DNA of 42,503 bases, taken from positions 1 through 42,503 of the forward strand of contig MHDO01000149.1 in NCBI GenBank assembly GCA_001805005.1, written 5' to 3'. The DNA comes from Nitrospinae bacterium RIFCSPLOWO2_12_39_16. GTDB taxonomy: Bacteria > Nitrospinota > Nitrospinia > UBA9942. Under the pieces are notes generated by a model. The model did not search any database and was not told the DNA's origin. It saw only the letters and a list, made by a program, of their open reading frames with translations. This document shows, piece by piece, positions 5,981-27,041 of this stretch. The position numbers and the translations under genes are program-made. Within the stretch, counting starts at the first letter, position 1. Every line of letters starts with the position of its first letter.

Positions 5981-8143
5981 ATGAACAAAAACCTAATATT
6001 AACCACAGAGACACAGAGGCGCAGAGGAAAAAACAACTTAAAGAAATCTCTGTGTCTCAGTGCCTCTGTGGCTTTTTCTTGCATCTTGCTTCTTGCATCT
6101 TGCTTCCTGTCACCGACACTGGCACTTGCACTGGAAGAGGAACTTCCATACTCCATCACAGATATTACATCTGGAGAGGCAGTAGATTTTTACCCTGAGT
6201 TCAGCCGTGATGGAAAACAGATTGTTTTCTCCTCTAAGCCATTGGACGGTAGTTATTTCACTGATATGCATCTGTGGATTATGGATGCCGATGGAAATAA
6301 CAGACGGCAGATAACAGATAAGAGTGCGATGTATCTTCAGCCTACCTTTACACCTGATGGAGAAAAGGTTGTTTTTATCTCCAATTTGGAAGATGGACTA
6401 TGGGATATATGGTCAATGAAAATTAACGGTTCAGGGCTTACCCGACTGACAAAGGACAACCAGAAAGAGTTTTTTCCGATTGTTACCTCTGATGGTAAAA
6501 ATGTGATTTTCATAGGAAGATATTTTGGAACGGATAGTGTATTTATTATGGATACTGATGGCAAAAATCTGAAAAGATTGACTTCCGGTGGAAATGGAGA
6601 TTCCTTTCCTGCGGTTTGTCAGGATGGAAAGGATATTATTTTTTCCACAACGAGGCTTGGTAATAGCAATCTCTGGACAATAGACAGAGAAGGGAAGATA
6701 TATAATCGTCTTACCTTTGAAGATACAATAGAGTTTTCACCATCCTGCAGCCCTGATGGAAAAAGGATTGCCTATGTTGCCATAGAGGGAGGGGCTAAGA
6801 CTTATAGCAAGGCACGGAAGGGATTTGAGTTTAAAGAGATATCCTATAGGGAAAGGTCATTTGATATGTGGTTGATGAACAAGGATGGAAGCGGCAGGAG
6901 GCAGATTGCAAGAAATATATTTGAGACGGGACCGAGTATGAGGTTGTTCAAGTCCGTAGATGTTATAGAAGGGATTAACTACTATCACATCTCATGGCAT
7001 CCTGATGGTAAAAAGATGATATTGAGCAGATGGAATAAGGACAAAGCGGGGAGTCGTATCAGTATCTTGTCATTAGATAATGAAGTTGTTGAAAAATTAC
7101 CAATCACCGAAACACCGCTTTCTGAGTATTCTCTTCTCAGTGAAAAAGACCTTACCGGTGGGGATTGGGATGACATCACCCCAAGTTTTGCCCCGGATGG
7201 CAAGGGTATAATATTTGCCTCTAACAGAAATGGCGGGTGGGATATATGGAGGCTTTGGATTGCGGATTGCGGATTGCGGATTGCGGATTGCAAATCAGAG
7301 TTTGATGATGCAAAGCTGGAACAGCTAACAAAAGGGGATGATGATGAGTTGGCTCCAGTATATAGTCCTGATGGCAAAAAGATAGCTTATTTACGAAATA
7401 CGAAAGACGAAATACTAAATACGAAATATGATATATGGTTAATGAAAACTGACGGGAGTAGTGCGAGGCAGGTTACAAATGGGATTTCTGTTCTTTCCTA
7501 CCCTGCATGGAAACCTGATGGGAAAGAGATTGTCTTTGTGTCTGAAGGTAATGAACAAGCCCCTGAAATATGGGGATATAATATCGCTGAGGGGAGTCTT
7601 AAAAATATTGCATCCATTAAGGACGCTTTACTTCTTGGCTCCAGATTAAATAAGAAAACTAATATTGAACTTATCAGTGACAGGCGAAATATAAATACTT
7701 CTAATCCGCTATCAATAGGTGCAGGTGGTATCTATCCATTTAATAAATTTCTTTATCGTATAAATTATAGTCCTCGCGGCGACAGAATTATATTTGAACT
7801 GGATATGAAAGATAGCATAGGTATATGGACTATTAATAGTGATGGTAATGGTCTTACTCCTGTTATGACAGAGGATTCTCTCTACTGGACGCCGGTCTTC
7901 AGCCCGGATGGCAGAAAAATAGCCTATTCAAAAAAGGCAGGTAAACAGTTTGCCCCGATATATTGGACGGATTACAACATCTGGATAGCGGATGTTGATA
8001 GCGGTGAGAAGATGATGATTAATGGGGAAGAGCAGATAGACTGGTTTCCATCATGGAGCCCTGATGGAAAGAAAATAGCTTATGTTACTAATCGTTCGGG
8101 AGATTTCAGCCGCTTTAATATATGGCTGTTGTATTTGAAATAA
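5981..8143 (+). CDS. exported PD40/TolB-like double beta-propeller protein (subfamily A)
   Basis: GGGAGG 5966-5971 lies 9 nt before ATG 5981; the ORF-track start 5972 is TTG. Leader MNKNLILTTETQRRRG..ASCFLSPTLALA/LEEE. PD40 blade motifs. Ends ..FNIWLLYLK*. Confidence 0.85.
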   Translation: MNKNLILTTETQRRRGKNNLKKSLCLSASVAFSCILLLASCFLSPTLALALEEELPYSITDITSGEAVDFYPEFSRDGKQIVFSSKPLDGSYFTDMHLWIMDADGNNRRQITDKSAMYLQPTFTPDGEKVVFISNLEDGLWDIWSMKINGSGLTRLTKDNQKEFFPIVTSDGKNVIFIGRYFGTDSVFIMDTDGKNLKRLTSGGNGDSFPAVCQDGKDIIFSTTRLGNSNLWTIDREGKIYNRLTFEDTIEFSPSCSPDGKRIAYVAIEGGAKTYSKARKGFEFKEISYRERSFDMWLMNKDGSGRRQIARNIFETGPSMRLFKSVDVIEGINYYHISWHPDGKKMILSRWNKDKAGSRISILSLDNEVVEKLPITETPLSEYSLLSEKDLTGGDWDDITPSFAPDGKGIIFASNRNGGWDIWRLWIADCGLRIADCKSEFDDAKLEQLTKGDDDELAPVYSPDGKKIAYLRNTKDEILNTKYDIWLMKTDGSSARQVTNGISVLSYPAWKPDGKEIVFVSEGNEQAPEIWGYNIAEGSLKNIASIKDALLLGSRLNKKTNIELISDRRNINTSNPLSIGAGGIYPFNKFLYRINYSPRGDRIIFELDMKDSIGIWTINSDGNGLTPVMTEDSLYWTPVFSPDGRKIAYSKKAGKQFAPIYWTDYNIWIADVDSGEKMMINGEEQIDWFPSWSPDGKKIAYVTNRSGDFSRFNIWLLYLK
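6003..6112. repeat. family-2 leader palindrome (octamer arms) + heptamers in PD40 gene 4
   Basis: CACAGAGA CACAGAGG CGCAGAGG 6004-6027. TCTCTGTG TCTCAGTG CCTCTGTG 6047-6070. CTTGCAT CTTGCTT CTTGCAT CTTGCTT CCTGTCA 6078-6112. Confidence 0.9.
7257..7291 (+). repeat. perfect (GGATTGC)x5 inside PD40 gene 4
   Basis: Five identical heptamers. Translates (R)LWIADCGLRIADC(K). Confidence 0.95.
7393..7427 (+). repeat. in-frame heptamer STR (ACKAAAK)x5 in PD40 gene 4
   Basis: ACGAAAT ACGAAAG ACGAAAT ACTAAAT ACGAAAT. Translates NTKDEILNTK. Same loop as 821-898. Confidence 0.9.
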
Positions 8144-13719: not shown

Positions 13720-14763
13720 ATGTTGTCATTTGGTTATTCAAGTAAAGGAAATTATAAAAATTTGCCACAGAGGCACGGAGACACAGAGGAAATAAGGAGA
13801 AATGGTGAAAGGAAAAGAAATGGAGGAGCAAAAAAGTTATTTTTTATTGCTTTTTCTCCATCTCTCCATCTTCTCCCTTTCTCCTTAGTCTTTTTTGTCT
13901 TTCTCTGTGCCTCTGTGTCTCTGTGGCTTATTATGTCATTTCCCTTAGTGGTTACCGGTGATGAAGGAAAGGATGCAGAAGCACCTATAGAATTGGTCTT
14001 TGTTAAAGGGGGTTGTTTTAAAATGGGAGATATTGCTGGAGACGGAGAGAATGATGAAAGGCCTGTTCATGAGGTCTGTGTGGATGATTTTTATATCGGC
14101 AAGTATGAGGTTACAAGGGGTGAGTTTGAAAAATTTTTTAGTGAGACAGGTTATACTACTGATGCACAAAAAATGGGCTGTTTCGGGAAAGTGGGTTACA
14201 AATGGAGAAAGAGGATGGATTTTAGCTGGGAAAAGGTAGATTTTCCTCAGACAGATAGGCACCCGGCAGTCTGTATAAGCTATAATGATACACAAGAATT
14301 TATAAAATGGTTGAATAAAAAGCTTGTGGTGAGCGAAGCGAATCCATCTGATGGTAAATATCGTTTGCCCACAGAGGCTGAATGGGAATATGCAGCGAGG
14401 AGCGGCGGTAAGGCAGAAAAATGGGCAGGAACAAGTATAGAGTCGGAGCTTTCAGATTATGCATGGTATGATAAAAACTCTGGAGGTAAAACACATCCTG
14501 TAGGTCAGAAGAAACCTAATGTATTGGGTTTATACGATATGAGCGGCAATGTGTGGGAGTGGGTGGAGGATTGGTATGAGGTTGATTATTATGATAGAAG
14601 CCCTAAAAATAATCCTTTAAATACGAGCCCCAGCCATGCAAAGTCAATGCGCAGTGGTCCATGGAGTGTTCCTGTCCATGCTGTAAGGGTATTCTATCGC
14701 GGTAGTGATATACCGTATAGTATATGTGATGGACTTGGGTTTAGGATTGCAAAGACACCGTAG
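13720..14763 (+). CDS. FGE-sulfatase-fold domain protein, no FGE catalytic Cys pair
   Basis: FYIGKYEVT, YRLPTEAEWEYAARSGG, YDMSGNVWEWVEDWY, GFRIA. The start is uncertain: ATG 13720 follows the upstream stop, while ATG 13684 overlaps it. The first ~70 codons run through a nested palindrome (13764-13927). Confidence 0.8.
   Translation: MLSFGYSSKGNYKNLPQRHGDTEEIRRNGERKRNGGAKKLFFIAFSPSLHLLPFSLVFFVFLCASVSLWLIMSFPLVVTGDEGKDAEAPIELVFVKGGCFKMGDIAGDGENDERPVHEVCVDDFYIGKYEVTRGEFEKFFSETGYTTDAQKMGCFGKVGYKWRKRMDFSWEKVDFPQTDRHPAVCISYNDTQEFIKWLNKKLVVSEANPSDGKYRLPTEAEWEYAARSGGKAEKWAGTSIESELSDYAWYDKNSGGKTHPVGQKKPNVLGLYDMSGNVWEWVEDWYEVDYYDRSPKNNPLNTSPSHAKSMRSGPWSVPVHAVRVFYRGSDIPYSICDGLGFRIAKTP
13764..13927. 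repeat. nested (double) STR palindrome in the 5' region of FGE-fold gene 13720
   Basis: Outer arms GCCACAGAGGCACGGAGACACAGAGG 13764-13789 and CTCTGTGCCTCTGTGTCTCTGTGGC 13903-13927. Inner arms GGAGAAATGGTGAAAGGAAAAGAAATGGAGGAG 13796-13828 and CTCCATCTCTCCATCTTCTCCCTTTCTCC 13856-13884. Confidence 0.85.
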
Positions 14764-16323: not shown

Positions 16324-17121
16324 ATGAAAAAAATATTATTTAAACTTTCAATTTTTTTCTTTGTGTCCTTCCTGTTCTTCGTGGTTAATCAGGTTTTTGT
16401 CCCTTCATTATCAGAGGCATCGGAATGTATCCTTATTGAACCGGAAGAGATGAAAAGGAGGTATGAAGACAGGGCAATTCTTTTAAACGATATGTTTATA
16501 TTTGATATTCGTTCCTATACGATAGCCAATAAGGGGAAAAGGATTCCGATGTCTATGGGGATCACCTATGAATCTATTGAAAATGAGTTTGTCTATGAGA
16601 TAGAGGTGTGGAAAGGGAAAGATGTTTATTTAGTAGGTGAAGATACAGAATCAACAGAGAACTTCTGCAAAGCCATGCTGGAAAAAAATTATCCAATTGA
16701 TGATATTTATGTTCTAAAGGGGGGTATGAATGCATGGAATGGACATGTTATCACTGGGAAGTTTGAGGATGTGAACTGTGAGGAGATAAATTTGGAAGAG
16801 TTATTGGGACTGAAAGATTCAGAAAGGAAAGTTGAATTTGTTGATATTCGTTCTCTAATAGATTATGAGAAGGGACATATTCCGGGTGCAGTAGGGGAAG
16901 GTGCGTTCAGGCGTGAAAATCTGTGTCTAACAGGTGTATTCTCAAGGGCGGTAAAGGAAGATGGTGCTGTGGTCTTTGTGGGATATACAGAGGCAGAAAC
17001 AGTGCATAGATGCAGGGCGCTGAAATGGGCAGTTGGATATAACAATATGTATGCACTTAAAGGAAGCATGAAGGCATGGAAAGGGAAGCTTGAAAAGGGA
17101 AAATTTGAGGGGCGGTATTAA
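16324..17121 (+). CDS. exported tandem rhodanese-like domain protein, catalytic Cys absent in both domains
   Basis: GGAGGTGG precedes ATG 16324. Signal peptide MKKILFKLSIFFFVSFLFFVVNQVFVPSLSEA/SE. Paralogue of 14769-15677. Loop positions read LVGEDTEST and FVGYTEAET. Also HIPGA and LKGGMNAWNG. Confidence 0.8.
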   Translation: MKKILFKLSIFFFVSFLFFVVNQVFVPSLSEASECILIEPEEMKRRYEDRAILLNDMFIFDIRSYTIANKGKRIPMSMGITYESIENEFVYEIEVWKGKDVYLVGEDTESTENFCKAMLEKNYPIDDIYVLKGGMNAWNGHVITGKFEDVNCEEINLEELLGLKDSERKVEFVDIRSLIDYEKGHIPGAVGEGAFRRENLCLTGVFSRAVKEDGAVVFVGYTEAETVHRCRALKWAVGYNNMYALKGSMKAWKGKLEKGKFEGRY

Positions 17122-18075: not shown

Positions 18076-21015
18076 ATGCAAGTTTTTCGGAAGTTTTATA
18101 AAATACTGCTACTGTTATTCGTTCCCACACTCTGCGTGGGAATGTTTATTATCTTAAACCCTGTCTACGCCTCTGAAATGCCTGCCCATGAACGATTTAA
18201 TCAGGGAGTTGATGCTGAATTAACCCATGAAACAAGTTCAGGGCAAGGTTCAGCACAAGTATTTGTTCAGATGGGGCATTCAGAATCGGTTCTTTCTGTA
18301 GCTTTCTCCAATAATGGAAAATATATATTATCAGGAGGCAAGGATAAAATCCTCATACTCTGGGATGCACCCACAGGGAGGGAGATACGAAAATTTGAAG
18401 GGCATACGAGTGATGTTAATTCAGTTGCCTTTAGTTATGACGGGAGGATTCTGGCATCAGGTGGTAGGGATAAAACCATAATTCTGTGGGATATTAATAC
18501 AGGAAATATCATAAAAACATTTATAGGTCATACATCCACTGTCAAATCAGTTGCCATTAGCCCTGATGGAAGGATTCTGGCATCAGGGAGTTGGGATAAA
18601 ACTATAATCCTGTGGGATATTGAAACGGGGAGTGCTATAAAAACACTTAAGGGACATAATGACTATATTGATTCAGTTGCCTTTAGTCCTGATGGAAGGA
18701 CTCTTGCATCGGGGAGTCAGGATAAAACCATAAAACTATGGGAAATATCTACAGGAAGGGAGATGCGGAAATTTGAAGGGCATACCGGTCATGTCAAATC
18801 AGTTTCCTTTAGTCCTGATGGAAAAATTATCGCATCAGGTATTGATAAAGATATAACCCTGTGGAATATAGAAACAGGGAGTGCTATAAGGACACTTAAA
18901 GGACATGATGATATGGTATTGTCAGTTGCCTTTAGTCCTGTTGGAAAGGTTCTCTCATCAGGTGGGATTGATAAAAACATAATTCTCTGGGATATTGATA
19001 CAGGCAATGTCATAAAAACATTCAAAGGACAAACTGACTATATCAGTTCAGTTGCTTTAAGTCCTGATGGAAGAACTCTATGCTCAGGGAGTTTTGATAA
19101 CACCGTACTCCTCTGGGATATAGAAACAGGGAGTGATATAAGGACACTTAAAGGGCATAATTTTTATGCCAAATCAGTTGCCTTCAGTCCAGATGGAAGG
19201 ATTCTGGCGTCAGAGAGTTATGACACCGTACTCCTCTGGGATATAGAAACAGGGAGTGCTATAAAGACACTTAAAGGACATAATGAGTGGGTATCTGCAG
19301 TTGCCTTCAGCCCTGATGGAAAAGTTTTTGCATCGGGTGGCTGGGATAAAACTATAATTCTCTGGGATGTTGCAGCAGGTAGTGCTATAAGAACATTCAG
19401 AGGGCATACTTCATGGGTCAAATCAGTTGCCTTTAGTCCTGATGGAAAGATGCTGGTATCTGTGGGACAGGATGACGCTATAATCCTCTGGGATGTGGCA
19501 GCAGGCAGTGCTATAAAAACGCTGAAAGGACATTGGGTCAAATCAGTTGCCTTTAGTCCTGATGGAAAGAGTATAGCATCAGGTGGTGATTACAATATAA
19601 CCCTTTTGGATGTTGCAACAGGAAATGTAATAAAGACTTTCACCGGCCATACCGATTGGGTTGTACCAGTCACCTTCAGCCATGATGGAAGGCTTTTAGC
19701 ATCAGGGAGTGTTGATAAAGCTGTAATACTCTGGGATGTTGAGAAAGGTAATGCCATAAAAACACTAAGAGGACACAGTAATAATGTCGTCTCAGTTGCC
19801 TTCAGCCATGATGGAAGGCTTTTAGCATCAGGGAGTGTTGATAAAACTGTAATACTCTGGGATGTTGAGAAAGGTAATGCCATAAAAACACTAAGAGGAC
19901 ATAATGATATACTTTTATCAGTTGCCTTTAGTCCTGCTAAAAGGATTCTCGTATCAGGGAGTGGCGATGGAACGAGCAGATGCTGGGATATAAATACAGG
20001 GAGGGAGATTGCCCAGTTTATAGGTTTTAGTAATGGAGAGTGGATTGTGATTACCCCTGAAGGCTATTACAATTCCTCTGCAAATGGTGATAAACTTTTG
20101 AATGTAAGGGTCGGCAATAATGTTTATGGAATGGATCGGTATCGCTCATCATTTTATAACCCCAGGATTGTGGAGAATGCATTAAAACTTGAGGATTCAC
20201 AGAAAGCCATCTTAGAGGTTATTGGAGGGCAAAAGGGGATATTGCCTACCATTTCTACAATCCCTGTAACAGAGAGGGGAAGAAAGGAATGTATACCTAT
20301 TGATGCAGAGGAAATGCAGAGACGATACGAGAATAAGCCACTTCTCTTTGATAATATGTTTATATTTGATATTCGTCCTCTTAAAATGGCTGTGAAAGGA
20401 AAATCCATCCCATTTGTAAAGCAAACCAATTGGGATATGTTCAGGGTAAAATATATTTATAATGTAGAAATGTGGAAGGGTAAAGATGTTTATCTGATTG
20501 GTGAAGACTCAGAATCAACGAAGAGTTTTTGCGAAGAGATGCTCAAAAAAGATTATAGTGTGAATGATATTTATTATTTAAAAGGTGGAATAGATGCCTG
20601 GAATGGACCTGTCAGGATGCCTTTTAAAGATGTCCAGTGTGAAGGTCTTGATGGGGATGAAATAAAAAAAATGATGGAGGGAGGACAGAAGGTTTATATA
20701 ATAGACTGGCGTCATCCAAACGATTTTTATAATGGCGGGCATATCCCTGACTCAATAAATGGATATGGGAAAGAAGGTATTTTTGGAGGGATTGAAGACA
20801 TGCTTAGGGGATACTTTAGATTCAGACCAATTTATATAGATGTAATCAGAGATAATGCCATAGCAGTGTTTATAGATGATACAGAGTGGAAAGGATTGCA
20901 TCGCTGTAAGATTGAGAAGAGGGCAAGTGGTGTAATGGATAAGATGTATTATTTAAAAGGTGGTATTGAAAACTGGAAAGGGTCTCTGGAGAAAGAATCA
21001 TGGCAGCAAAAATAA
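18076..21015 (+). CDS. exported 14-repeat WD40 protein fused to a beta-rich linker and C-terminal tandem Cys-less rhodanese-like domains
   Basis: 14 units of [KR]GHxxxVxSVAFSPDG[RK]xLASGSxDKT[IV]xLWD (two 7-blade propellers). Then GEWIVITPEGYYNSSANGDKLLNVRVG..FYNPRIV. From ~20281, RKECIPIDAEEMQRRY.. is paralogous to 14769-15677 and 16324-17121. N-terminus MQVFRKFYKILLLLFVPTLCVGMFIILNPVYA/SE. Confidence 0.85.
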   Translation: MQVFRKFYKILLLLFVPTLCVGMFIILNPVYASEMPAHERFNQGVDAELTHETSSGQGSAQVFVQMGHSESVLSVAFSNNGKYILSGGKDKILILWDAPTGREIRKFEGHTSDVNSVAFSYDGRILASGGRDKTIILWDINTGNIIKTFIGHTSTVKSVAISPDGRILASGSWDKTIILWDIETGSAIKTLKGHNDYIDSVAFSPDGRTLASGSQDKTIKLWEISTGREMRKFEGHTGHVKSVSFSPDGKIIASGIDKDITLWNIETGSAIRTLKGHDDMVLSVAFSPVGKVLSSGGIDKNIILWDIDTGNVIKTFKGQTDYISSVALSPDGRTLCSGSFDNTVLLWDIETGSDIRTLKGHNFYAKSVAFSPDGRILASESYDTVLLWDIETGSAIKTLKGHNEWVSAVAFSPDGKVFASGGWDKTIILWDVAAGSAIRTFRGHTSWVKSVAFSPDGKMLVSVGQDDAIILWDVAAGSAIKTLKGHWVKSVAFSPDGKSIASGGDYNITLLDVATGNVIKTFTGHTDWVVPVTFSHDGRLLASGSVDKAVILWDVEKGNAIKTLRGHSNNVVSVAFSHDGRLLASGSVDKTVILWDVEKGNAIKTLRGHNDILLSVAFSPAKRILVSGSGDGTSRCWDINTGREIAQFIGFSNGEWIVITPEGYYNSSANGDKLLNVRVGNNVYGMDRYRSSFYNPRIVENALKLEDSQKAILEVIGGQKGILPTISTIPVTERGRKECIPIDAEEMQRRYENKPLLFDNMFIFDIRPLKMAVKGKSIPFVKQTNWDMFRVKYIYNVEMWKGKDVYLIGEDSESTKSFCEEMLKKDYSVNDIYYLKGGIDAWNGPVRMPFKDVQCEGLDGDEIKKMMEGGQKVYIIDWRHPNDFYNGGHIPDSINGYGKEGIFGGIEDMLRGYFRFRPIYIDVIRDNAIAVFIDDTEWKGLHRCKIEKRASGVMDKMYYLKGGIENWKGSLEKESWQQK
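18122..18142. repeat. 7-bp-stem hairpin TTCCCAC-ACTCTGC-GTGGGAA inside signal-peptide coding region
   Basis: Perfect inverted repeat. Encodes (F)VPTLCVGM. Confidence 0.6.
19675..19926 (+). repeat. 126-bp tandem duplication = two near-identical WD40 blades (repeats 12 and 13)
   Basis: 19675-19775 against 19801-19901: 101 nt with a single mismatch (ATAAAGCTG/ATAAAACTG). Both encode FSHDGRLLASGSVDK[AT]VILWDVEKGNAIKTLRGH. Confidence 0.95.
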
Positions 21016-21845: not shown

Positions 21846-23372
21846 ATGAAACAATATAAGAATAGAACAATTTTATGCTTACTGCTTACTGTCTACTGCC
21901 TATTGCTTACTGTTAATGTTTATGCCTCTGTTTGGCAGAAGCCTGTCTTGATAGATGCAGGGACAGGTGATGCCTTCAGAACGAATATTGCCTTTGACCC
22001 TTATGGAAATGCCATGGCAGTGTTTGAGCAGTATACAGATGGCTTCTCAAGGATATATGCAAATCAATTTTTATTTAATAAAAATGGGTGGCAGAGACCT
22101 GTTATTATTGATGCAGGACCAAGTAATGCATATGTATCACGGGTTGCCTTTAACCAGAGCGGTGATGCCATTGCCATCTTCAAGCAGAGTGATGGAAGCA
22201 TATATCGTATCTATGCAAATCATTTTATCAGAACTGAAGGATGGAAAGGACCTGTTGCAATTGATGTAGGAACTGGAGACGCAGATGGACATCAGATAAC
22301 TTATAATGCTGATGGTAATGCTGTTGTGGTTTTTGAGCAGAAGCATAAAGGTATATACAGGATTTTTGCCAATCAATACAGGAGGGAAGAGGGTTGGCGT
22401 GGTGCAGTGGTAATTGATAGTGGTAATTGCAATGGATATTTTCCCTATCCTGCCTTTGATTATCAGGGAAATATCTATGTGATTTATTACAAGGAGGAGG
22501 GGAGTGGTCTTGAGGTATATGTAAATAAATACGAGGAGGGAAATAAGATATGGGGTAAACCTCTTCGCCTAACCGATGGACAGACTGTTGTTAAACATGA
22601 AGATTGGAATAAAAAGAGGGGTTATGTAAATAGAGGTATTACAGGAATATATAATCCGCTTTTTCTTCCTGAGATTAAAAAAAAGATTTATGCAGGGAAT
22701 TATACTTACAATATTAAGCGATTTGAGACCCCGTCTAAGATAGATTCAAGATTCAGAGATGCCTATACCCCTTCTGTGGTATGTGATAAAAATGGGCAGG
22801 TATTTGCATTTTTTGTAAAATGGGATGGGGAGTATCAAAGGGGATATACAGCAGTATACAGGGATAAAGATGGCTGGAGTAAGCCTGAGATTATTGATGC
22901 AAGAGGTGGAGATGTTGAGCATATAAGGGCTGCAATAAATTCAAAAGGTGAAATAGCCTTGGTATTTACTCAATGGCAATTAGAGAGTCAAAGAGCAAAA
23001 GGGTCAGAAAATCAGAGAGAGAATTTAAGAATACATGGAAGAATATACACACCTTCATCTGATTGGGGAAAGGCGGAGATTATTGATGCGGGCAGAAAGG
23101 ATGCCTATGGTCCAGCAGTGATATTCAATGGCGATGATGAAATTATAGCGATATGGTGTCAGTGGGAAGAAGAAACTGTAAAAACTTATAGGAATGATTA
23201 TATAAAAGAAAGAGGATGGGGGAAGGCAGTAAGAGCAGAAATGGAAGATGAATCCTGCGGCGGTTGTGGATTAAGGATTGCGGCATCTCAAGATGGAATG
23301 CTCATCGCTATATTTGAACAGAAGGTCTCCGTTAAAGAAAGGACAAAAATATACGGTATAGAGAGGAAATAA
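21846..23372 (+). CDS. exported repeat protein: ~8-9 copies of an unnamed ~48-aa unit (probable beta-propeller, Asp-box-like)
   Basis: Signal peptide MKQYKNRTILCLLLTVYCLLLTVNVYA/SV. Repeated unit GWxxPVxIDxGxxxxxxxxxAFxxxGNAxxVFEQxxxGxxRIYANxY (e.g. GWQRPVIIDAGPSNAYVSRVAFNQSGDAIAIFKQSDGSIYRIYANHF). Confidence 0.7.
   Translation: MKQYKNRTILCLLLTVYCLLLTVNVYASVWQKPVLIDAGTGDAFRTNIAFDPYGNAMAVFEQYTDGFSRIYANQFLFNKNGWQRPVIIDAGPSNAYVSRVAFNQSGDAIAIFKQSDGSIYRIYANHFIRTEGWKGPVAIDVGTGDADGHQITYNADGNAVVVFEQKHKGIYRIFANQYRREEGWRGAVVIDSGNCNGYFPYPAFDYQGNIYVIYYKEEGSGLEVYVNKYEEGNKIWGKPLRLTDGQTVVKHEDWNKKRGYVNRGITGIYNPLFLPEIKKKIYAGNYTYNIKRFETPSKIDSRFRDAYTPSVVCDKNGQVFAFFVKWDGEYQRGYTAVYRDKDGWSKPEIIDARGGDVEHIRAAINSKGEIALVFTQWQLESQRAKGSENQRENLRIHGRIYTPSSDWGKAEIIDAGRKDAYGPAVIFNGDDEIIAIWCQWEEETVKTYRNDYIKERGWGKAVRAEMEDESCGGCGLRIAASQDGMLIAIFEQKVSVKERTKIYGIERK
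21878..21912 (+). repeat. heptamer STR CTTACTG CTTACTG TCTACTG CCTATTG CTTACTG in signal peptide of propeller gene
   Basis: Encodes LLLTVYCLLLTV. Confidence 0.9.
22984..23023 (+). repeat. in-frame octamer STR AGAGTCAA AGAGCAAA AGGGTCAG AAAATCAG AGAGAGAA in propeller gene
   Basis: Translates ESQRAKGSENQRE. Interrupts one ~48-aa repeat unit. Confidence 0.8.
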
Positions 23373-23398
23373 GAAGGGTTGTAATAGATTTGTAAAAG

Positions 23399-23427
23399 TT
23401 GCATAGGTGGGCATTTTAAGTTATAAT
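23399..23427 (+). promoter_or_regulatory. candidate sigma70-type promoter upstream of 23469 gene
   Basis: TTGCAT (23399-23404), 17-nt spacer, perfect TATAAT (23422-23427). Lies in one of the few ~100-nt gaps. The -35 box matches only 3/6. Confidence 0.35.
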
Positions 23428-23468
23428 GACGGCTAATAAATCCCTGCGGTTATTGTGAAGGAGACAAT

Positions 23469-24311
23469 ATGAGACTAAAAAATATTATAAGTAGAAAGTT
23501 TTTAATCTATTGCGGAGGGGGAGGCTTATTTTTAATCCTCTTGATATTTATATATTATTTCTTTTTTGCTGTCGGCATGTCAAAAGACATGGTATTCATA
23601 CCAGGCGGGGAATTTATAATGGGGGTTAATATCCCAAAAGATGAGCAGGGGAAGAGAGAGGTGGAATTATCAATAGATATTGATGAGACACCAGCACATA
23701 AGATTTATGTAGATGGTTTTTATATAGATAAATACGAGGTTACAAATGCACAGTTTAAAAAATTTCTGAAGGCAACAAGCAGAAAATCTCTCCTTATTGA
23801 CCCGGTTGATAAAGGGGCTCCATACAACTGGAAGGAGGACAACTACCCTGAAGGGGAGGGGGATAACCCGGTTGTTCTTGTGGATTTTGAAGATGCAAAG
23901 GCATATTGTGAATGGAAAGGGAAGAGGTTGCCCACAGAAGAGGAATGGGAAAAGACATGTCGGGGAGATGATGGAAGAAAATGGAGTTATGGGAATGAAG
24001 ATGTTTCAGGATATGCTAACACAAGGGAGATAAATTTGAAGTGGTCAGGTCCAGTTGGCTCTTTTCCAAAAGATATTTCGCCCTATATGGTTTTTGATAT
24101 GACAGGTAATGTAATGGAATGGACAGAGTCTCACTATTTGCCATATCCTGAAACTGAAATGAGGGTAGGTTTTGGAGGACTTGAGAAGGTGATTCGTGGA
24201 GGAGGGTGGCTGATAGACCTTCAATCTTCAAGGTGTTCAAATCGCAATATTACTGCCACTGAAAAAAGACATAGAATGTTAGGTTTCAGATGTGCAAAGG
24301 ATATAAGATGA
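23469..24311 (+). CDS. membrane-anchored/exported FGE-sulfatase-fold domain protein, no FGE catalytic Cys pair
   Basis: AAGGAG lies 5 nt before ATG 23469. TM/signal GGGGLFLILLIFIYYFFFAVG. FYIDKYEVTNAQFKKF, RLPTEEEWEKTCRG, FDMTGNVMEWT, IRGGGW..SRCSNR..GFRCAKD. Confidence 0.85.
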   Translation: MRLKNIISRKFLIYCGGGGLFLILLIFIYYFFFAVGMSKDMVFIPGGEFIMGVNIPKDEQGKREVELSIDIDETPAHKIYVDGFYIDKYEVTNAQFKKFLKATSRKSLLIDPVDKGAPYNWKEDNYPEGEGDNPVVLVDFEDAKAYCEWKGKRLPTEEEWEKTCRGDDGRKWSYGNEDVSGYANTREINLKWSGPVGSFPKDISPYMVFDMTGNVMEWTESHYLPYPETEMRVGFGGLEKVIRGGGWLIDLQSSRCSNRNITATEKRHRMLGFRCAKDIR

Positions 24312-24433
24312 TGAACAAAAACCTAATGAAACCACAGAAGATGGGCACAGATAAACACAGATTTAAAAAGAAAAAAATTACCTGTATTCCTCCGTGTTTA
24401 TCTGTGGTTACTTCTATAAATTTCTATGCATGA
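24311..24433 (+). other. orphan copy of the MNKNL leader cassette (40-codon ORF with no mature domain attached)
   Basis: ATG 24311 overlaps the upstream stop TGA 24309-24311. It reads MNKNLMKPQKMGTDKHRFKKKKITCIPPCLSVVTSINFYA*. Its stop TGA 24431-24433 overlaps the next cassette's ATG 24430. The first 17 nt are identical to the leader of gene 5981. Confidence 0.5.
24330..24406. repeat. palindrome of the orphan family-2 cassette
   Basis: Perfect 13-bp inverted repeat CACAGATAAACAC 24346-24358 / GTGTTTATCTGTG 24394-24406, extended by AACCACAG../..CTGTGGTT. Confidence 0.9.
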
Positions 24434-25311
24434 ACAAAAATCTGATTTTAACCACGAAGAAGACGAGGTGGAAGATAATTTTAGGATTTTTAATCTCCGG
24501 GATTTTCGTGTCCTTCGTGGCTTATATTTTTTTTAACAGGGGCATAGCTTCAGAAATAGATGGGATGGTATATATACCGGAGGGTGAATTTAAGATGGGA
24601 AGCAAGGGTAAGCTGGAGCATGGAGATGATGGCGGCGATGGAAGGATAGGTTTGGAGGTTGGTGTTGACGAGATACCCTTGCATATTGTCATGGTAAAAG
24701 GATTCTACATTGATAGATATGAGGTTACAAATGCCCAATACAAGAAATTTTTTGATGCAACAGGACGGGAGCCGCCTGTAGATAGTGTGGCGCCAGATGC
24801 ACCCTATAACTGGAGAAATGGTAATTATCCAGCAGGTGAGGATAATCATCCTGTAGTTAATGTTACATGGTATGATGCTGAAGCCTACTGCAAATGGGCA
24901 GACAAGAGGCTTCCCACAGAGGCAGAATGGGAGAAATCATGTCGTGGTGGTGATGGAAGGAGATGGAGTTTTGGGAATTCTTTTATCACTTCCTTTGTTA
25001 ATACACATGAGCTTGAACTCAAATGGTCGCAGGCTGTAGGCTCATTTCCCGAAGACCGCTCTCCTTATGGTGTTTATGATATGTCAGGTAATGTAATGGA
25101 ATGGACAGCTTCCTGGTATAATCCTTACCCAACCTCAACTCTCAAAAGAGAGACATTTGGAGAGCAAAACAGGGTGATAAGGGGCGGAGCATGGTTGACA
25201 AGTTATCTTACCGCAAGATGTGCAAGCAGAAATTTCGCTGTGCCTGAGAAAAAGCACAGGACAATGGGATTTAGATGTGCAAAGGATGCCAATTGGAAAA
25301 AGAAGATTTAA
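24430..25311 (+). CDS. membrane-anchored/exported FGE-sulfatase-fold domain protein, no FGE catalytic Cys pair
   Basis: Start is placed at the conserved cassette ATG 24430 (MNKNLILTTKKTRWKIILGFLISGIFVSFVAYIFF); ORF-track ATG 24394 is inside the preceding orphan element. FYIDRYEVTNAQYKKF, RLPTEAEWEKSCRG, YDMSGNVMEWT, GFRCAKD. Confidence 0.85.
   Translation: MNKNLILTTKKTRWKIILGFLISGIFVSFVAYIFFNRGIASEIDGMVYIPEGEFKMGSKGKLEHGDDGGDGRIGLEVGVDEIPLHIVMVKGFYIDRYEVTNAQYKKFFDATGREPPVDSVAPDAPYNWRNGNYPAGEDNHPVVNVTWYDAEAYCKWADKRLPTEAEWEKSCRGGDGRRWSFGNSFITSFVNTHELELKWSQAVGSFPEDRSPYGVYDMSGNVMEWTASWYNPYPTSTLKRETFGEQNRVIRGGAWLTSYLTARCASRNFAVPEKKHRTMGFRCAKDANWKKKI
24450..24520. repeat. family-2 cassette palindrome (ACGAAG flavour) in leader of FGE-fold gene 24430
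   Basis: AACCACGAAGAAGACGAGGTGGAAG 24450-24474 against TTCGTGTCCTTCGTGG 24505-24520 (13/16 complementary). Confidence 0.8.
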
Positions 25312-27041
25312 ACACAGAGAAAGCAGAAAAAAGATACATAAATGGGACACAGATTTACACAGATAAAATAAAGATAAAAATTAATTTTTTAAATTTTTTA
25401 TTCTCTGTGTCCTCTGTGGTTTATGTTTTGTTTTTTGTTGTCCTTCTTGCAGGTTGTCAATCTGAAGACAAGAGAGTAGACAGTAGCGAGAAGATAAAGG
25501 CAGAACATGAGAAGGAAATAGTGCGGTTGAAGGATTTACTTAAAGAAGACCCGACAAGATGGAAGGAACGCCATAAATTAGGTGTCGCATATATGACCAT
25601 GGGAAAGAATGAGGAGGCAACTCAGGAATTTTTAGAGGTGATGTCAATAAAGCCTGATGATATTGATAATCTGCAATCACTGGGTATGGCATATTATAAG
25701 ATGGGTAAAAAACATAAAGCACACTTTTATTGGCGTAGTGCCCTTGAGATAGAGCCTGAAAACAAATTTATATGGGATATGCTTAAGATGATTGAAAAGG
25801 AAAAAGGCACGGGTGATGTATCCATGGATATAGAAAAATGGGCAAAGCATTATAAGGAAGGGCAGAAATTTTATAAGGAGAAGGAGTATGAAAAGGCAGC
25901 TAAAGAATTTGAGCTCGCCGTAAAATATAATTCAACCGATTCCAGGACATATTTTTCCATTGGTGCAGTATATAGAGCAATTGACAAGATAGATGAGGCA
26001 ATATCAGCATGGCAGAATGCTCTCAAGTTTAAACCTGATGACCTTATGGTCATGAAATTAATATCTCTTGCAAAGGAGAAGAAGGAGAGGGATGCTGCAA
26101 TGCTTAAAGCAAAGGAGGCAGTTGAAAAAAATCCAAATGATTGGAAGGCACATTCCAGTCTTGCCTCACTATATATTAGCGATAAGCATGGCAGGTTTAT
26201 AGACGAGGCAGAGACAGAATATAAGGAGACGATTCGTCTAAATTCACAGGATACGAATGCATATAGACAACTCGCAGAGATAAGCTTTTACAAGGGGCAA
26301 TATAAAGATGGCATTGGCTATCTTGAGAGGGCGGCAAAATATCTATCAAAGGAAGATGTAATATACAAAAAGATTAATAACATGAAGTTATATTTGAAAT
26401 TGTATCAAAAAGGGAGAGAAGCATGGAGTAAGGAGGGAATCAAAAAATATGATGAAATGGTCTTTGTTGATAGGTTCTATATAGATAAATATGAGGTAAC
26501 CAACGCCCAATATAAGAAATTTCTTGATGGGAACCTTAACCTTCCTCTGCCCCCCCACTGGAAAAAAGGGGCATATGAAGCAGGGAAAGATAACTATCCT
26601 GTTGTAAATGTGGATTGGTATATGGCGGCTATGTATTGCAAATCTATCAGTAAGCGTCTTCCTACCAAAGAAGAATGGGACAAGGCTGCCCGAGGGAATG
26701 AGGGATTTGAATATCCATGGGGAAAGATATTCAAGAGTGAGCTTTTAAACAGCGATGAGGCAGGTTTTGAGAGGTTGACCCCTGCAGGAAGTTTTGAGGC
26801 TGGCAAAAGTCCTTACGGGATTTATGACATGGCTGGGAATGTAAAGGAGTGGACAGATAGCGAATATGAAAAAAAAGTAGGAGAGGCTGAACTCCCTTTT
26901 CACGGCGGTAGCTATAAAATATTACGAGGCGGGTCTTTTAGATCAAATGCAGAAGAGGTCAAGGTGGCAAATATGAAATATTCGCCACCTGCATATAGAG
27001 ATATAGATGTTGGCTTTAGGTGTGCAAAGAGCAAGCAATGA
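25275..27041 (+). CDS. TPR-repeat + C-terminal FGE-sulfatase-fold lipoprotein (lipobox LLAGC)
   Basis: ..FFVVLLAGC/QSEDK lipobox, Cys codon 25455-25457. TPR units include LGVAYMTMGKNEEATQEFLEVMSIKPDD, SLGMAYYKMGKKHKAHFYWRSALEIEPEN and others. C-terminal FYIDKYEVTNAQYKKF, RLPTKEEWDKAARG, YDMAGNVKEWT, GFRCAKS. The start is uncertain: ATG 25275 overlaps the upstream gene by 37 nt and there is no other in-frame ATG. Confidence 0.8.
   Translation: MCKGCQLEKEDLNTEKAEKRYINGTQIYTDKIKIKINFLNFLFSVSSVVYVLFFVVLLAGCQSEDKRVDSSEKIKAEHEKEIVRLKDLLKEDPTRWKERHKLGVAYMTMGKNEEATQEFLEVMSIKPDDIDNLQSLGMAYYKMGKKHKAHFYWRSALEIEPENKFIWDMLKMIEKEKGTGDVSMDIEKWAKHYKEGQKFYKEKEYEKAAKEFELAVKYNSTDSRTYFSIGAVYRAIDKIDEAISAWQNALKFKPDDLMVMKLISLAKEKKERDAAMLKAKEAVEKNPNDWKAHSSLASLYISDKHGRFIDEAETEYKETIRLNSQDTNAYRQLAEISFYKGQYKDGIGYLERAAKYLSKEDVIYKKINNMKLYLKLYQKGREAWSKEGIKKYDEMVFVDRFYIDKYEVTNAQYKKFLDGNLNLPLPPHWKKGAYEAGKDNYPVVNVDWYMAAMYCKSISKRLPTKEEWDKAARGNEGFEYPWGKIFKSELLNSDEAGFERLTPAGSFEAGKSPYGIYDMAGNVKEWTDSEYEKKVGEAELPFHGGSYKILRGGSFRSNAEEVKVANMKYSPPAYRDIDVGFRCAKSKQ
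25311..25422. repeat. STR palindrome in leader of TPR-FGE lipoprotein gene
   Basis: AACACAGAGAAAGCAGAAAA..GGGACACAGATTTACACAGATAAA 25311-25368 against TTCTCTGTGTCCTCTGTGGTT 25401-25422. Confidence 0.75.

Follow-up and report, generated by a model that had tools for sequence, protein, structure and literature searches.

A candidate family of palindromic repeats at gene junctions and gene starts in groundwater Nitrospinota

Genes and Elements at the Locus

The DNA considered here is a stretch of 42,503 nucleotides (nt) from Nitrospinae bacterium RIFCSPLOWO2_12_39_16 (contig MHDO01000149.1), which at its full length is called the window. Its proteins group, at 90% identity or higher, with NCBI proteins from metagenome-assembled genomes named "Nitrospinae/Nitrospinota bacterium". 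Two of its FGE-sulfatase genes identified with Pfam, FGE1 (23469–24311, + strand) and FGE2 (24430–25311, + strand), are separated by a small palindromic element at 24311–24429, called the orphan here. The element consists of a short head, a long hairpin, and a tail, and an open reading frame (ORF) of 40 codons runs through the whole of it (24311–24433, + strand; product MNKNLMKPQKMGTDKHRFKKKKITCIPPCLSVVTSINFYA, then the stop). The head recurs at three gene starts of the window and in related contigs, which are denoted by L numbers. The nature of this element, and of the repeat family to which it appears to belong, is the subject of this article.

The orphan head, ATGAACAAAAACCTAAT (24311–24327, + strand), is unpaired in the predicted fold. 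It is followed by the hairpin 5′ arm (24330–24361, + strand), which reads AACCACAGA and then CACAGATAAACACAGA in tandem CACAGAT-type units, by an A-rich loop (24362–24390, + strand) that differs by one base in the L097 orthologue, and by the 3′ arm TCCGTGTTTATCTGTGGTT (24391–24409, + strand). The tail (24410–24429, + strand) is a degenerate version of the family consensus TTTTATAATTTCCTATAY and contains TATAAA at 24415–24420, with 9 nt between this box and the ATG at 24430. An earlier sequence-only reading of the window had reported a perfect 13-bp inverted repeat in the orphan, which is indeed present (24346–24358 / 24394–24406). Allowing 94% complementarity, its length grows to 16 nt, and a 9-bp pair, AACCACAGA/TCTGTGGTT, lies outside it. 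Folded as RNA, the element gave −27 kcal/mol with z = −4.5. Its first 28 nt are identical to those of the copy in L003.

The overlap of the 40-codon ORF with both of its neighbors, described in the same reading, was likewise found. Its ATG has an A in common with the TGA stop of FGE1, and its own TGA overlaps the ATG at 24430 (ATGA). This ATG of FGE2 has no Shine-Dalgarno site of its own. The 40-aa product matched no Pfam family. Two metagenome contigs of the Joint Genome Institute (JGI) hold the same sequence, and JGI annotated the orphan as a gene of 41 aa. Contigs from four DNA runs also contained variants within the element, with 3–4 nt deletions and 3-nt insertions at 24336–24343 and 24376–24377. 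These variants account for 20–40% of the local depth, and the 3-nt deletion is the L097 allele; in contigs, an origin from this locus is indistinguishable from an origin in other copies.

The head pattern ATGAAYAAAAAYCTRAT, with one mismatch allowed, matched the window at four positions (1576, 5981, 24311, and 24430), all on the + strand. The chance expectation was 0.02 matches, and none of 100 shuffles reached four, so the claim that a 17-nt head opens four ORFs holds. The ORFs opening at 1576 and 5981 encode PD40 beta-propeller proteins according to Pfam. The copy at PD40 gene 2 (1576–1679, + strand) has its head at 1576–1592 and arms of the CACAGAGG type at 1596–1622 / 1657–1679, and that at PD40 gene 4 (5981–6073, + strand) has its head at 5981–5997 and arms at 6001–6027 / 6047–6073. 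A Shine-Dalgarno site lies 8 nt before the head ATG in both genes (AGGAGG at gene 2), which supports this ATG as their start. The close similarity of the two genes noted earlier for the region from the Shine-Dalgarno site to the palindrome was confirmed, with about 93% identity over 1540–1625 (upstream gene end, Shine-Dalgarno site, head, and 5′ arm), compared to unrelated loops and gene bodies only 45–72% identical.

The fourth match belongs to the leader of FGE2 (24430–24545, + strand), in which a second head (24430–24446) and decayed arms (24450–24468 / 24504–24523) are followed by a signal-anchor coding region. The arms show 77% complementarity, and shuffled sequence folds just as well (z = −0.22). 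The palindrome earlier ascribed to FGE2 is thus decayed. The orphan also has a spacer of 2 nt between the head and AACC, compared to 3 nt in the three gene-start copies, and therefore reads the repeats in a different frame. Another contig, L010 (Ga0208373_1058064, 1756 bp, GC 0.44), was not used; it is 100% identical to window positions 24426–24653 (228 nt) and unrelated thereafter. It carries a Shine-Dalgarno site, AAAGGAGG, before the FGE2 head, and represents either a possible assembly chimera or a real alternative upstream context.

A Repeat Family with Conserved Flanks and Variable Arms

Copies of the element were sought in two collections. A scan of one genome per species (185,579 species) for the head followed by 2–3 nt and AACCRCRRA gave three loci, all in metagenome-assembled genomes (MAGs) of Nitrospinota. 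A looser scan of a metagenome collection gave 86 loci. About 35 of these (GC 0.37–0.41) carry the head, AACC, tandem units, a loop, and the inverse arm, and the others are ordinary MNKKL-type gene starts of other organisms with no palindrome. In related Nitrospinota contigs, the complete arrangement of head, hairpin, and tail was found at about 19 distinct, unrelated sites. Consistent with a multicopy element, the Logan contig depth over 24308–24409 is 3–6 times that of the flanks, and unitigs break there. The head is not unique to this locus, and orphan copies exist elsewhere, for example between nuoG and nuoA; these were the two points looked for as possible refutations of the sequence-only reading.

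The elements measure about 110–135 bp, or up to about 230 bp with nested inserts, and no copy contains a long ORF. The family head is ATGAACAAAAAYCTRAT, also written (AT)GAACAAAAAYCTRAT, and is followed by 2–3 nt and then AACC. The arms are built of two to three tandem units of 7–10 nt that conform to C[AG]C-N-[GA]A[GT] (CRCNRAK). Their sequence varies by copy (CACAGAT, CACAGAGG, CACTGAG, CGCAAAG, CGCAGAT, CACGAAT, and CACGAAG), and within each copy the two arms stay complementary. The tail is TTTTATAATTTCCTATAY, with an ATG directly after it, often as ATGAACAAA. An alignment of 13 copies showed an invariant head, differing arms, a variable A/T-rich loop, and a conserved tail in which TATAAT is the best conserved segment. 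The earlier remark that the flavor of the repeat varies from copy to copy while the head is conserved extends to the family.

Every orphan copy folds into one long hairpin (z from −2.8 to −8.0), with the head and tail single-stranded. These z-scores were obtained copy by copy; arm units are out of register between copies in the alignment. The head and/or the tail flank 27 of 32 non-redundant CRCNRAK hairpins whose flanks could be read, compared to 6% at random positions, a contrast biased upward by the use of loci fetched with the head. In the related loci, 35 occurrences of the tail motif were counted, almost all of them directly 3′ of a 3′ arm. Copies were found in both orientations relative to genes.

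Loops are hot spots of insertion and take nested insertions of other palindromes (L008, L063, and L073); the sole difference between L073 and L085 is a nested loop insertion of about 40 nt. The nested second palindrome was seen at L008 1410–1490, at L063 4280–4480, and on the minus strand of L073 at about 5075–5150, and reads GTCATTCTGAGC..GAAGAATCTC / GAGATTCCTCACTTCGTTCGGAATGAC.

Reading Frames and Placement Between Genes

Reading frames were surveyed in 36 non-redundant pattern matches, several of which are palindrome-free gene starts of other organisms. Among the hairpin-bearing matches, only the three gene-start copies of the window and their orthologues read on into a gene. The remaining hairpin-bearing copies meet a stop after 6–77 codons, mostly 11–23, at varying places. 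The heads of L004 and L005 are unable to code at all, since their seventh codon is TAA. Copies outside the reach of the ATGAA-anchored pattern have NNGAACAAA (AGGA, AAGA, GGGA, GTGA, TTGA, and others), so that the head ATG is common but not universal. Rather than being primarily a coding leader, the head forms the conserved 5′ flank of a repeat that is mostly non-coding. Thus, the description of the family as a leader cassette with one orphan was right as to a cassette-like unit but not as to its emphasis, as the family is mainly a non-coding intergenic repeat whose gene-start copies are the exceptions.

Most copies fill tight gene junctions, often exactly from the upstream stop codon to the downstream start codon. 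The tail lies directly before the ATG of unrelated genes, including pdxA-like, agmatine-deiminase-like, response regulator, heptosyltransferase-like, nuoA, and gspJ-like genes, names that were read from N-terminal sequences for all but nuoA. In seven loci, a long upstream ORF ends in a stop codon that overlaps the head ATG, as TAATG/TGATG or as a TGA within ATGAAC. A clear parallel to the orphan is the copy in L003 between a nuoG-like gene and nuoA, which has a CACAGAGG-type hairpin and the tail GGTAAATTTTTTATAATTTCCTATAT. There, the TGA inside the ATGAAC of the head serves as the nuoG stop, and a frame of 43 codons terminates on the nuoA ATG. In the window, L097, L003, and L062, the head frame spans the whole element and overlaps the ATG of the next gene, and in L021 it nearly does so. 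Compared to these, a long frame was found in only 2 of about 17 copies that have no abutting upstream gene, which weakly suggests that copies inside operons keep an open bridging frame.

Most copies have ATGA (often as ATGAAC or ATGAACAAA) both where the head starts and behind the tail. The repeated ATGA-type end is 4 to 11 nt long, and heads found without ATGAA have NNGA. At nuoG–nuoA, both ATGA copies are native sequence. These terminal ATGA sequences may represent a favored target or a duplication.

Turnover and Conservation at Orthologous Junctions

The FGE1–FGE2 junction was found in five states in six related genomes. The window and L097 have the orphan in common. In L092, whose FGE2 and FGE1 are 97.6% and 92.7% identical to those of the window, the junction holds an unrelated element (59% identity) with a head variant that has no ATG and with CACGAAT arms. 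In L093, an L092-type head and 5′ arm are joined directly to the FGE2 membrane anchor, and the former spacer now encodes ..KNKYLNTNGTNGRIKGK.. as part of the protein. L096 has no element, with 6 nt between the two genes and a different FGE2 leader. L021 has a head with a CGCAGAT hairpin and then an ordinary FGE2 that starts with TTG. None of the six orthologous junctions holds an extra gene. FGE-like and rhodanese genes are paired again in the related contigs L093–L098.

Nine relatives of FGE2 were read, and at least five unrelated leaders are distributed over the eight of them that include an N-terminus. The proteins are 62–97% identical over their aligned length (71–97% for the seven closest), and their leaders are non-homologous. 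A similar exchange was found for PD40 gene 3, whose orthologue in L074 is 96% identical in the body and has the family head, hairpin, and full tail, compared to an AGAAGAC-type leader in the window. In this pair (L074 243–430 and window 3716–3861), the head, the CACAGAGG hairpin, and the full tail of L074 are followed by ATT in place of ATG, and a second 3′ arm after the ATT encodes a normal-looking signal peptide, IKKSLCLSSSVAFSCILLLAGDVFA.

Because the junction exists in five states and orthologues carry non-homologous leaders, the element behaves as a unit that can be captured as a gene start, and both its capture and its replacement as a unit are directly visible in the comparison of orthologues. 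This was one of two origins that the sequence-only reading had offered for the orphan, and it is borne out by the roughly 19 unrelated sites, by L093 and L074, and by the orthologues of FGE2.

Elements that are retained change little. The orphan is 95% identical between the window and L097, with three substitutions, all of which change an amino acid, and one in-frame 3-nt indel, compared to 81–88% identity for the genes that flank it. Summed over three orthologous pairs, 7 of 370 positions differ within the elements, compared to 226 of 2387 within the flanks. Between strains, copies are either nearly identical (about 98%) or replaced wholesale, and slow neutral decay is unlikely for this reason. 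This pattern fits either a nucleotide-level function or recent exchange from strain to strain, and does not separate the two.

At the nuoG–nuoA junction, each of three extra relatives has a different repeat. In L100 (600–700), the nuoG stop context AATGAGC is amplified four times in tandem; L101 (1485–1555) has a GTGTCAGTG-type hairpin; and L099 (890–940) has GCTGAAA repeats and an inserted gene of the Uma2 family.

Other Leaders and Repeats in the Window

A listing of gene starts showed that nearly all exported-protein genes in the window open with purine-rich tandem units of 7–8 nt and their reverse complement. They encode PD40, FGE, rhodanese, and WD40 proteins and the pseudopilins and secretin of type II secretion. 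The leader units are AGAAGAC, CAGAAGT, GCAAAAA, ACGAAG, AAATCCA, CAAGAAG, CACAGAGG, and ACACTGAC, and further starts of this kind lie at 3716, 10439, 12744, 14769, 21000, 27553, 28065, 31539, 33062, 33783, and 37801. The encoded N-termini are rich in K/R/E/T and then in L/F/C/S. As almost all exported genes in the window open alike, the four head copies are part of a genome-wide habit, and starts made of units and their reverse complement are the wider phenomenon behind both of the leader cassette families that had been distinguished.

Three other family members lie in the window. A variant-head element, AAGAAGATTTAAACACAGAG (25293–25425, + strand), has a CACAGAT/CACAGAG hairpin and contains the FGE2 stop codon inside its head. 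The hairpin that follows encodes, within 25293–25450, an N-terminal extension of about 38 aa of the next gene, a lipoprotein with TPR and FGE-sulfatase domains and the lipobox LLAGC, whose start as called by JGI is a TTG overlapping FGE2. A reverse-oriented copy lies between two FGE genes (13727–13935, − strand), with the tail TTTATAATTTCCTTTAC on the minus strand and a second palindrome nested in its loop. A degenerate family tail precedes the secretin gene.

In a rhodanese gene (16324–17121), the hydrophobic core of the signal peptide, FFFVSFLFFVVNQVFV (16350–16404), is encoded by the reverse complement of a head-like sequence and 5′ arm (AGGGACAAAAACCTGATTAACCACGAAGAACAGGAAGGACACAAAG), i.e., by half an element that is reversed and now coding. 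A WD40 protein of 979 aa includes at least a dozen tandem repeats of 126 nt (42 aa; 18295–20091) with 60–77% identity, which are ordinary WD40 blades in an unusually regular array. On one strand, the window holds six PD40 genes, seven genes with FGE-sulfatase domains, four rhodanese genes, two large WD40 genes, a methyltransferase gene, and a complete type II secretion operon.

Comparison with Known Repeat Systems

The family shares features with several classes of small bacterial repeats. Like MITEs (miniature transposable elements with inverted repeats), its members are shorter than 300 bp, multicopy, and without a transposase of their own, as no copy contains a long ORF. A classical MITE was nevertheless rejected, since the inverted repeat is internal and the ends, ATGAACAAAAAYCTRAT and TTTTATAATTTCCTATAY, are unpaired and not complementary to each other. 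Repetitive extragenic palindromes (REPs) and REPINs were rejected because arm sequences vary between copies and there is no GTAG or CGTC tag. The cyanobacterial STRR heptamers and small dispersed repeats and the CTCTT leader repeats of Neisseria opa genes are all composed of short tandem units of 5–8 nt in intergenic or signal-peptide coding positions, and nested insertion of small palindromes is also known. An STRR is a plain tandem array that lacks a conserved head and tail, and the opa repeats lie on one strand only and act by frame-shifting; neither forms a unit of head, hairpin, and tail.

A close likeness is to the enterobacterial RU-1/ERIC and RU-2 repeats, which are MITE-like and have been found fused to ORFs (Delihas 2007, PMC2759123). 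These are also small intergenic palindromic repeats that are sometimes in frame with genes; a fused repeat can provide predicted signal-peptide or transmembrane segments (YPO1552), and orthologues use unrelated signal sequences (PMC2759123). However, in RU/ERIC the repeat sequence itself is conserved and fusions are rare anecdotes, whereas in the Nitrospinota family the arms vary and only the flanks are conserved. Furthermore, the head brings its own ATG, and use and replacement as a leader are seen on many exported-protein genes in a single 42-kb window. Rickettsia palindromic elements are similar in being palindromic repeats of about 100–150 bp that lie in frame within genes and become part of the protein (PMC10969869). 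They differ in that they are found inside genes, in surface loops of proteins, and in conserved sequence families, in contrast to the Nitrospinota elements, which lie at junctions and 5′ ends and are mostly non-coding; kinship in sequence is not expected.

Correia elements of Neisseria are small repeats immediately upstream of genes; sigma-70-like promoter boxes lie within them, they are co-transcribed, and the hairpins that they form influence expression (PMC10969869). Their inverted repeats are truly terminal, the TA target is duplicated, and the body is conserved, whereas the Nitrospinota family has asymmetric, non-complementary ends, variable arms, and at most a putative promoter activity. 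REPs, bacterial interspersed mosaic elements, and REPINs are likewise multicopy extragenic hairpins between convergent or co-directional genes, with a conserved tag beside the stem and proposed roles in mRNA stability and termination (PMC3733652, PMC8049555). Compared to REPs, which are G+C-rich sequences of 20–40 bp with a conserved stem, a GTAG/CGTC tag, and RAYT transposases (PMC3733652, PMC8049555), the Nitrospinota family has stems of about 25–30 bp with mismatches and tandem units, and its conserved parts are the 17-nt head and the 18-nt tail. Reused ("mobile") promoters also place a nearly identical upstream sequence with a −10-like box before non-homologous genes (PMC3575422), but the module described here is tied to a hairpin repeat and a start codon, and its promoter role is putative.

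Collectively, the family is set apart by its asymmetric flanks (a start codon and a −10-like box), its variable tandem arms, and its repeated use at the 5′ ends of exported-protein genes. A literature search found no description of such elements in Nitrospinota, which is not proof of novelty.

Several other identities were rejected. The hairpin base AACCAC...GTGGTT(A/C) does not fit the RYYYAAC / GTTRRRY core sites of an integron attC site, and there is no integrase among the window ORFs scanned. A diversity-generating retroelement acting on the FGE-fold genes is not indicated, as there is no reverse transcriptase domain in the ORFs scanned and no template repeat; the direct repeats of the FGE genes are ordinary paralogy (86% identity or less), and the variation between orthologues is N-terminal, not C-terminal. 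Rfam 15 gave no match at gathering thresholds over the whole window, and sub-threshold matches of animal microRNA hairpins to the orphan are noise.

Proposed Mechanism and Function

The findings are best explained if 24311–24429 is one copy of a lineage-specific, non-autonomous palindromic repeat family of groundwater Nitrospinota. We assign a probability of roughly 0.7 to this explanation as a whole.

Gain, loss, and replacement of copies would occur by recombination at the conserved flanks and arms, and the L093 junction resembles a deletion between two adjacent 5′ arms. Where a copy is read in frame, the head would supply an ATG and Asn/Lys codons, the purine-rich arm would yield charged or polar residues (K/R/E/T/Q, as in TTETQRRRG and TTKKTR), and the pyrimidine-rich arm would yield small or hydrophobic ones (L/F/C/S/V, as in SLCLSASVA and FVSFV). 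With this codon content of its arms, an in-frame copy would mimic a signal peptide, with a charged n-region and a hydrophobic h-region. The element appears to have been recruited in this manner as the N-terminal leader of the PD40 proteins, of FGE2, and of the TPR-FGE lipoprotein. By inspection only, the putative signal peptide of PD40 gene 4 reads MNKNLILTTETQRRRGKNNLKK / SLCLSASVAFSCILLLASCFLSPTLALA / LEE, the leader of PD40 gene 2 ends in ..TLSYA/QE, and that of the TPR-FGE protein ends in its lipobox.

For the orphan, the 40-codon ORF is most likely not a protein gene, judging from its sequence. Its open frame could let ribosomes arriving from FGE1 cross the hairpin and restart at the FGE2 ATG, and translational coupling of the two genes through this frame is proposed because FGE2 has no Shine-Dalgarno site. 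The hairpin itself probably acts as an intercistronic RNA structure. The tail, written as TATAAT-N9-ATG, may be a start module that works without a Shine-Dalgarno site, or a promoter. In other copies, the sequence 16–18 nt upstream of TATAAT is arm sequence that by eye is unlike TTGACA, and there is no TG extension. A promoter lacking a −35 box or a promoter of leaderless type is possible and would be compatible with the scan results given below.

Evidence Against the Repeat-Family Explanation

Several observations weigh against this explanation. First, the loci were retrieved through the head motif, which biases both the number of copies and the fraction of them that have an ATG. Second, the elements are about five-fold less diverged than the flanking genes, and neutral selfish DNA predicts otherwise. 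Third, a clean empty orthologous site was not found at the FGE1–FGE2 and nuoG–nuoA junctions, since every junction examined carries some repeat. Furthermore, no clean target-site duplication and no terminal inverted repeats were found at the true ends of copies. Fourth, no head-initiated bridging frame like that of the window is apparent in L092, where the head has no ATG, and coupling through such a frame is therefore perhaps not strictly required for FGE2. Fifth, simple scans of 23300–25500 found no −35/−10 pair (boxes 16–18 nt apart), including at the tail of the orphan, and no canonical terminator; the terminator scan admits only loops of 3–8 nt, compared to a loop of 20–35 nt in the family, with a long mismatched stem and a U-rich tail 3–10 nt after it. 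Finally, the region occurs in 20 DNA runs (groundwater, soil, and sediment) and in no RNA run, and four metatranscriptome runs yielded a single 228-nt contig, from the 3′ end of FGE2.

Alternative Explanations

The strongest alternative is that the element is a functional cis-regulatory cassette under selection, and that its function, not its spread, explains why it exists. The hairpin would serve as a stabilizer, processing site, or attenuator, and the TATAAT-N9-ATG tail would drive or start the downstream gene, either as a promoter of leaderless type or as a start region that needs no Shine-Dalgarno site. This account overlaps with the repeat-family explanation, and we consider it plausible while leaning against it. 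It is favored by the low divergence of the elements in all three orthologous pairs, which includes the loops, by the fixed position of the tail 9–10 nt before the ATG of many unrelated genes, by the conservation of TATAAT above the rest of the tail, by a head and tail that are always single-stranded, and by the lack of a Shine-Dalgarno site at FGE2. However, no −35 box lies at the right spacing, no TG extension accompanies the TATAAT, and the scans gave neither promoter nor terminator. Copies in both orientations relative to genes, the same junction without an element in L096 and with a different one in L092, and the absence of the region from RNA runs also argue against it.

A bolder possibility, which we regard as unlikely, is that the hairpin units of the repeat family are substrates of an active and possibly enzyme-driven cassette exchange that swaps the 5′ ends of exported-protein genes. 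Such an exchange, comparable in spirit to integron attC recombination or to shufflons, would create or replace signal peptides and 5′ mRNA structures de novo, far faster than point mutation, a consequence that carries the same low probability. The idea is fitted by the all-or-nothing pattern, in which copies either show about 98% identity or are replaced outright, and in which orthologues with 96–97% identity have exchanged leaders.

It is improbable that the tandem units of 7–10 nt are a contingency (phase-variation) switch, with slippage altering the frame or the hairpin and so toggling the downstream secreted protein, in the manner of the CTCTT repeats of the Neisseria opa leader. In favor of it, unit lengths are not divisible by three, the units occur across the window within the 5′ coding ends of exported proteins or just ahead of them, their number and type differ between orthologues, and the four-fold AATGAGC in L100 is a heptamer expansion at a nuoG stop. 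On the other hand, no change in unit number within a population was seen at the locus, for which contigs and not reads were available, and the 3–4 nt indel variants in contigs may stem from other copies. Furthermore, arms of two or three units are short tracts for efficient slippage.

Still less can be said for the view that the 40-codon ORF is a genuine gene for a small membrane or secreted peptide, translationally coupled between the FGE genes, which we consider quite improbable. The frame is open across the element and is kept in L097 despite the 3-nt indel; stop and start codons overlap on both sides, with a weak AAGGA 9 nt upstream; the same bridging layout exists at nuoG–nuoA and in L062; and JGI called a gene there. 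Against this, all three substitutions between the window and L097 change the amino acid, and in most other copies a stop comes early, at a position that varies. Conservation of the tail is at the DNA level and not in frame (..SINFYA in the window and ..FFIISYI in L003), the product has no Pfam match, and L092 and L096 have no such ORF at the junction.

The second origin offered by the sequence-only reading would make the orphan what remains of the 5′ end (signal-peptide region) of a gene deleted between the FGE genes. This gains some plausibility from the tandem array of paralogous FGE genes, a setting in which genes may well be lost, and from the resemblance of the orphan's start to that of FGE2. 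It is very improbable, as the element is complete with its own tail, runs precisely up to the next ATG and is followed by neither an FGE fragment nor one of any other domain, has the same architecture between unrelated genes, and is matched by no extra gene at the six orthologous junctions.

Biological Significance

If the repeat-family explanation is true, an uncultured clade builds and rebuilds N-terminal export signals and 5′ mRNA hairpins for its secreted proteins from a single family of palindromic repeats. The exact fit of the element between stop and start codons leaves both genes intact. In the annotation of these MAGs, dozens of entries that stand as "hypothetical small proteins" or as mis-called gene starts would be translated repeats. 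The family also provides a test case of the spread of repeats other than classical MITEs and REPs, and of the reasons for their stronger conservation compared to neighboring genes. Finally, it would offer a concrete route, taken repeatedly, by which signal peptides are born de novo and replaced, and in which a purine-rich arm gives rise to the charged n-region and its reverse complement to the hydrophobic h-region.

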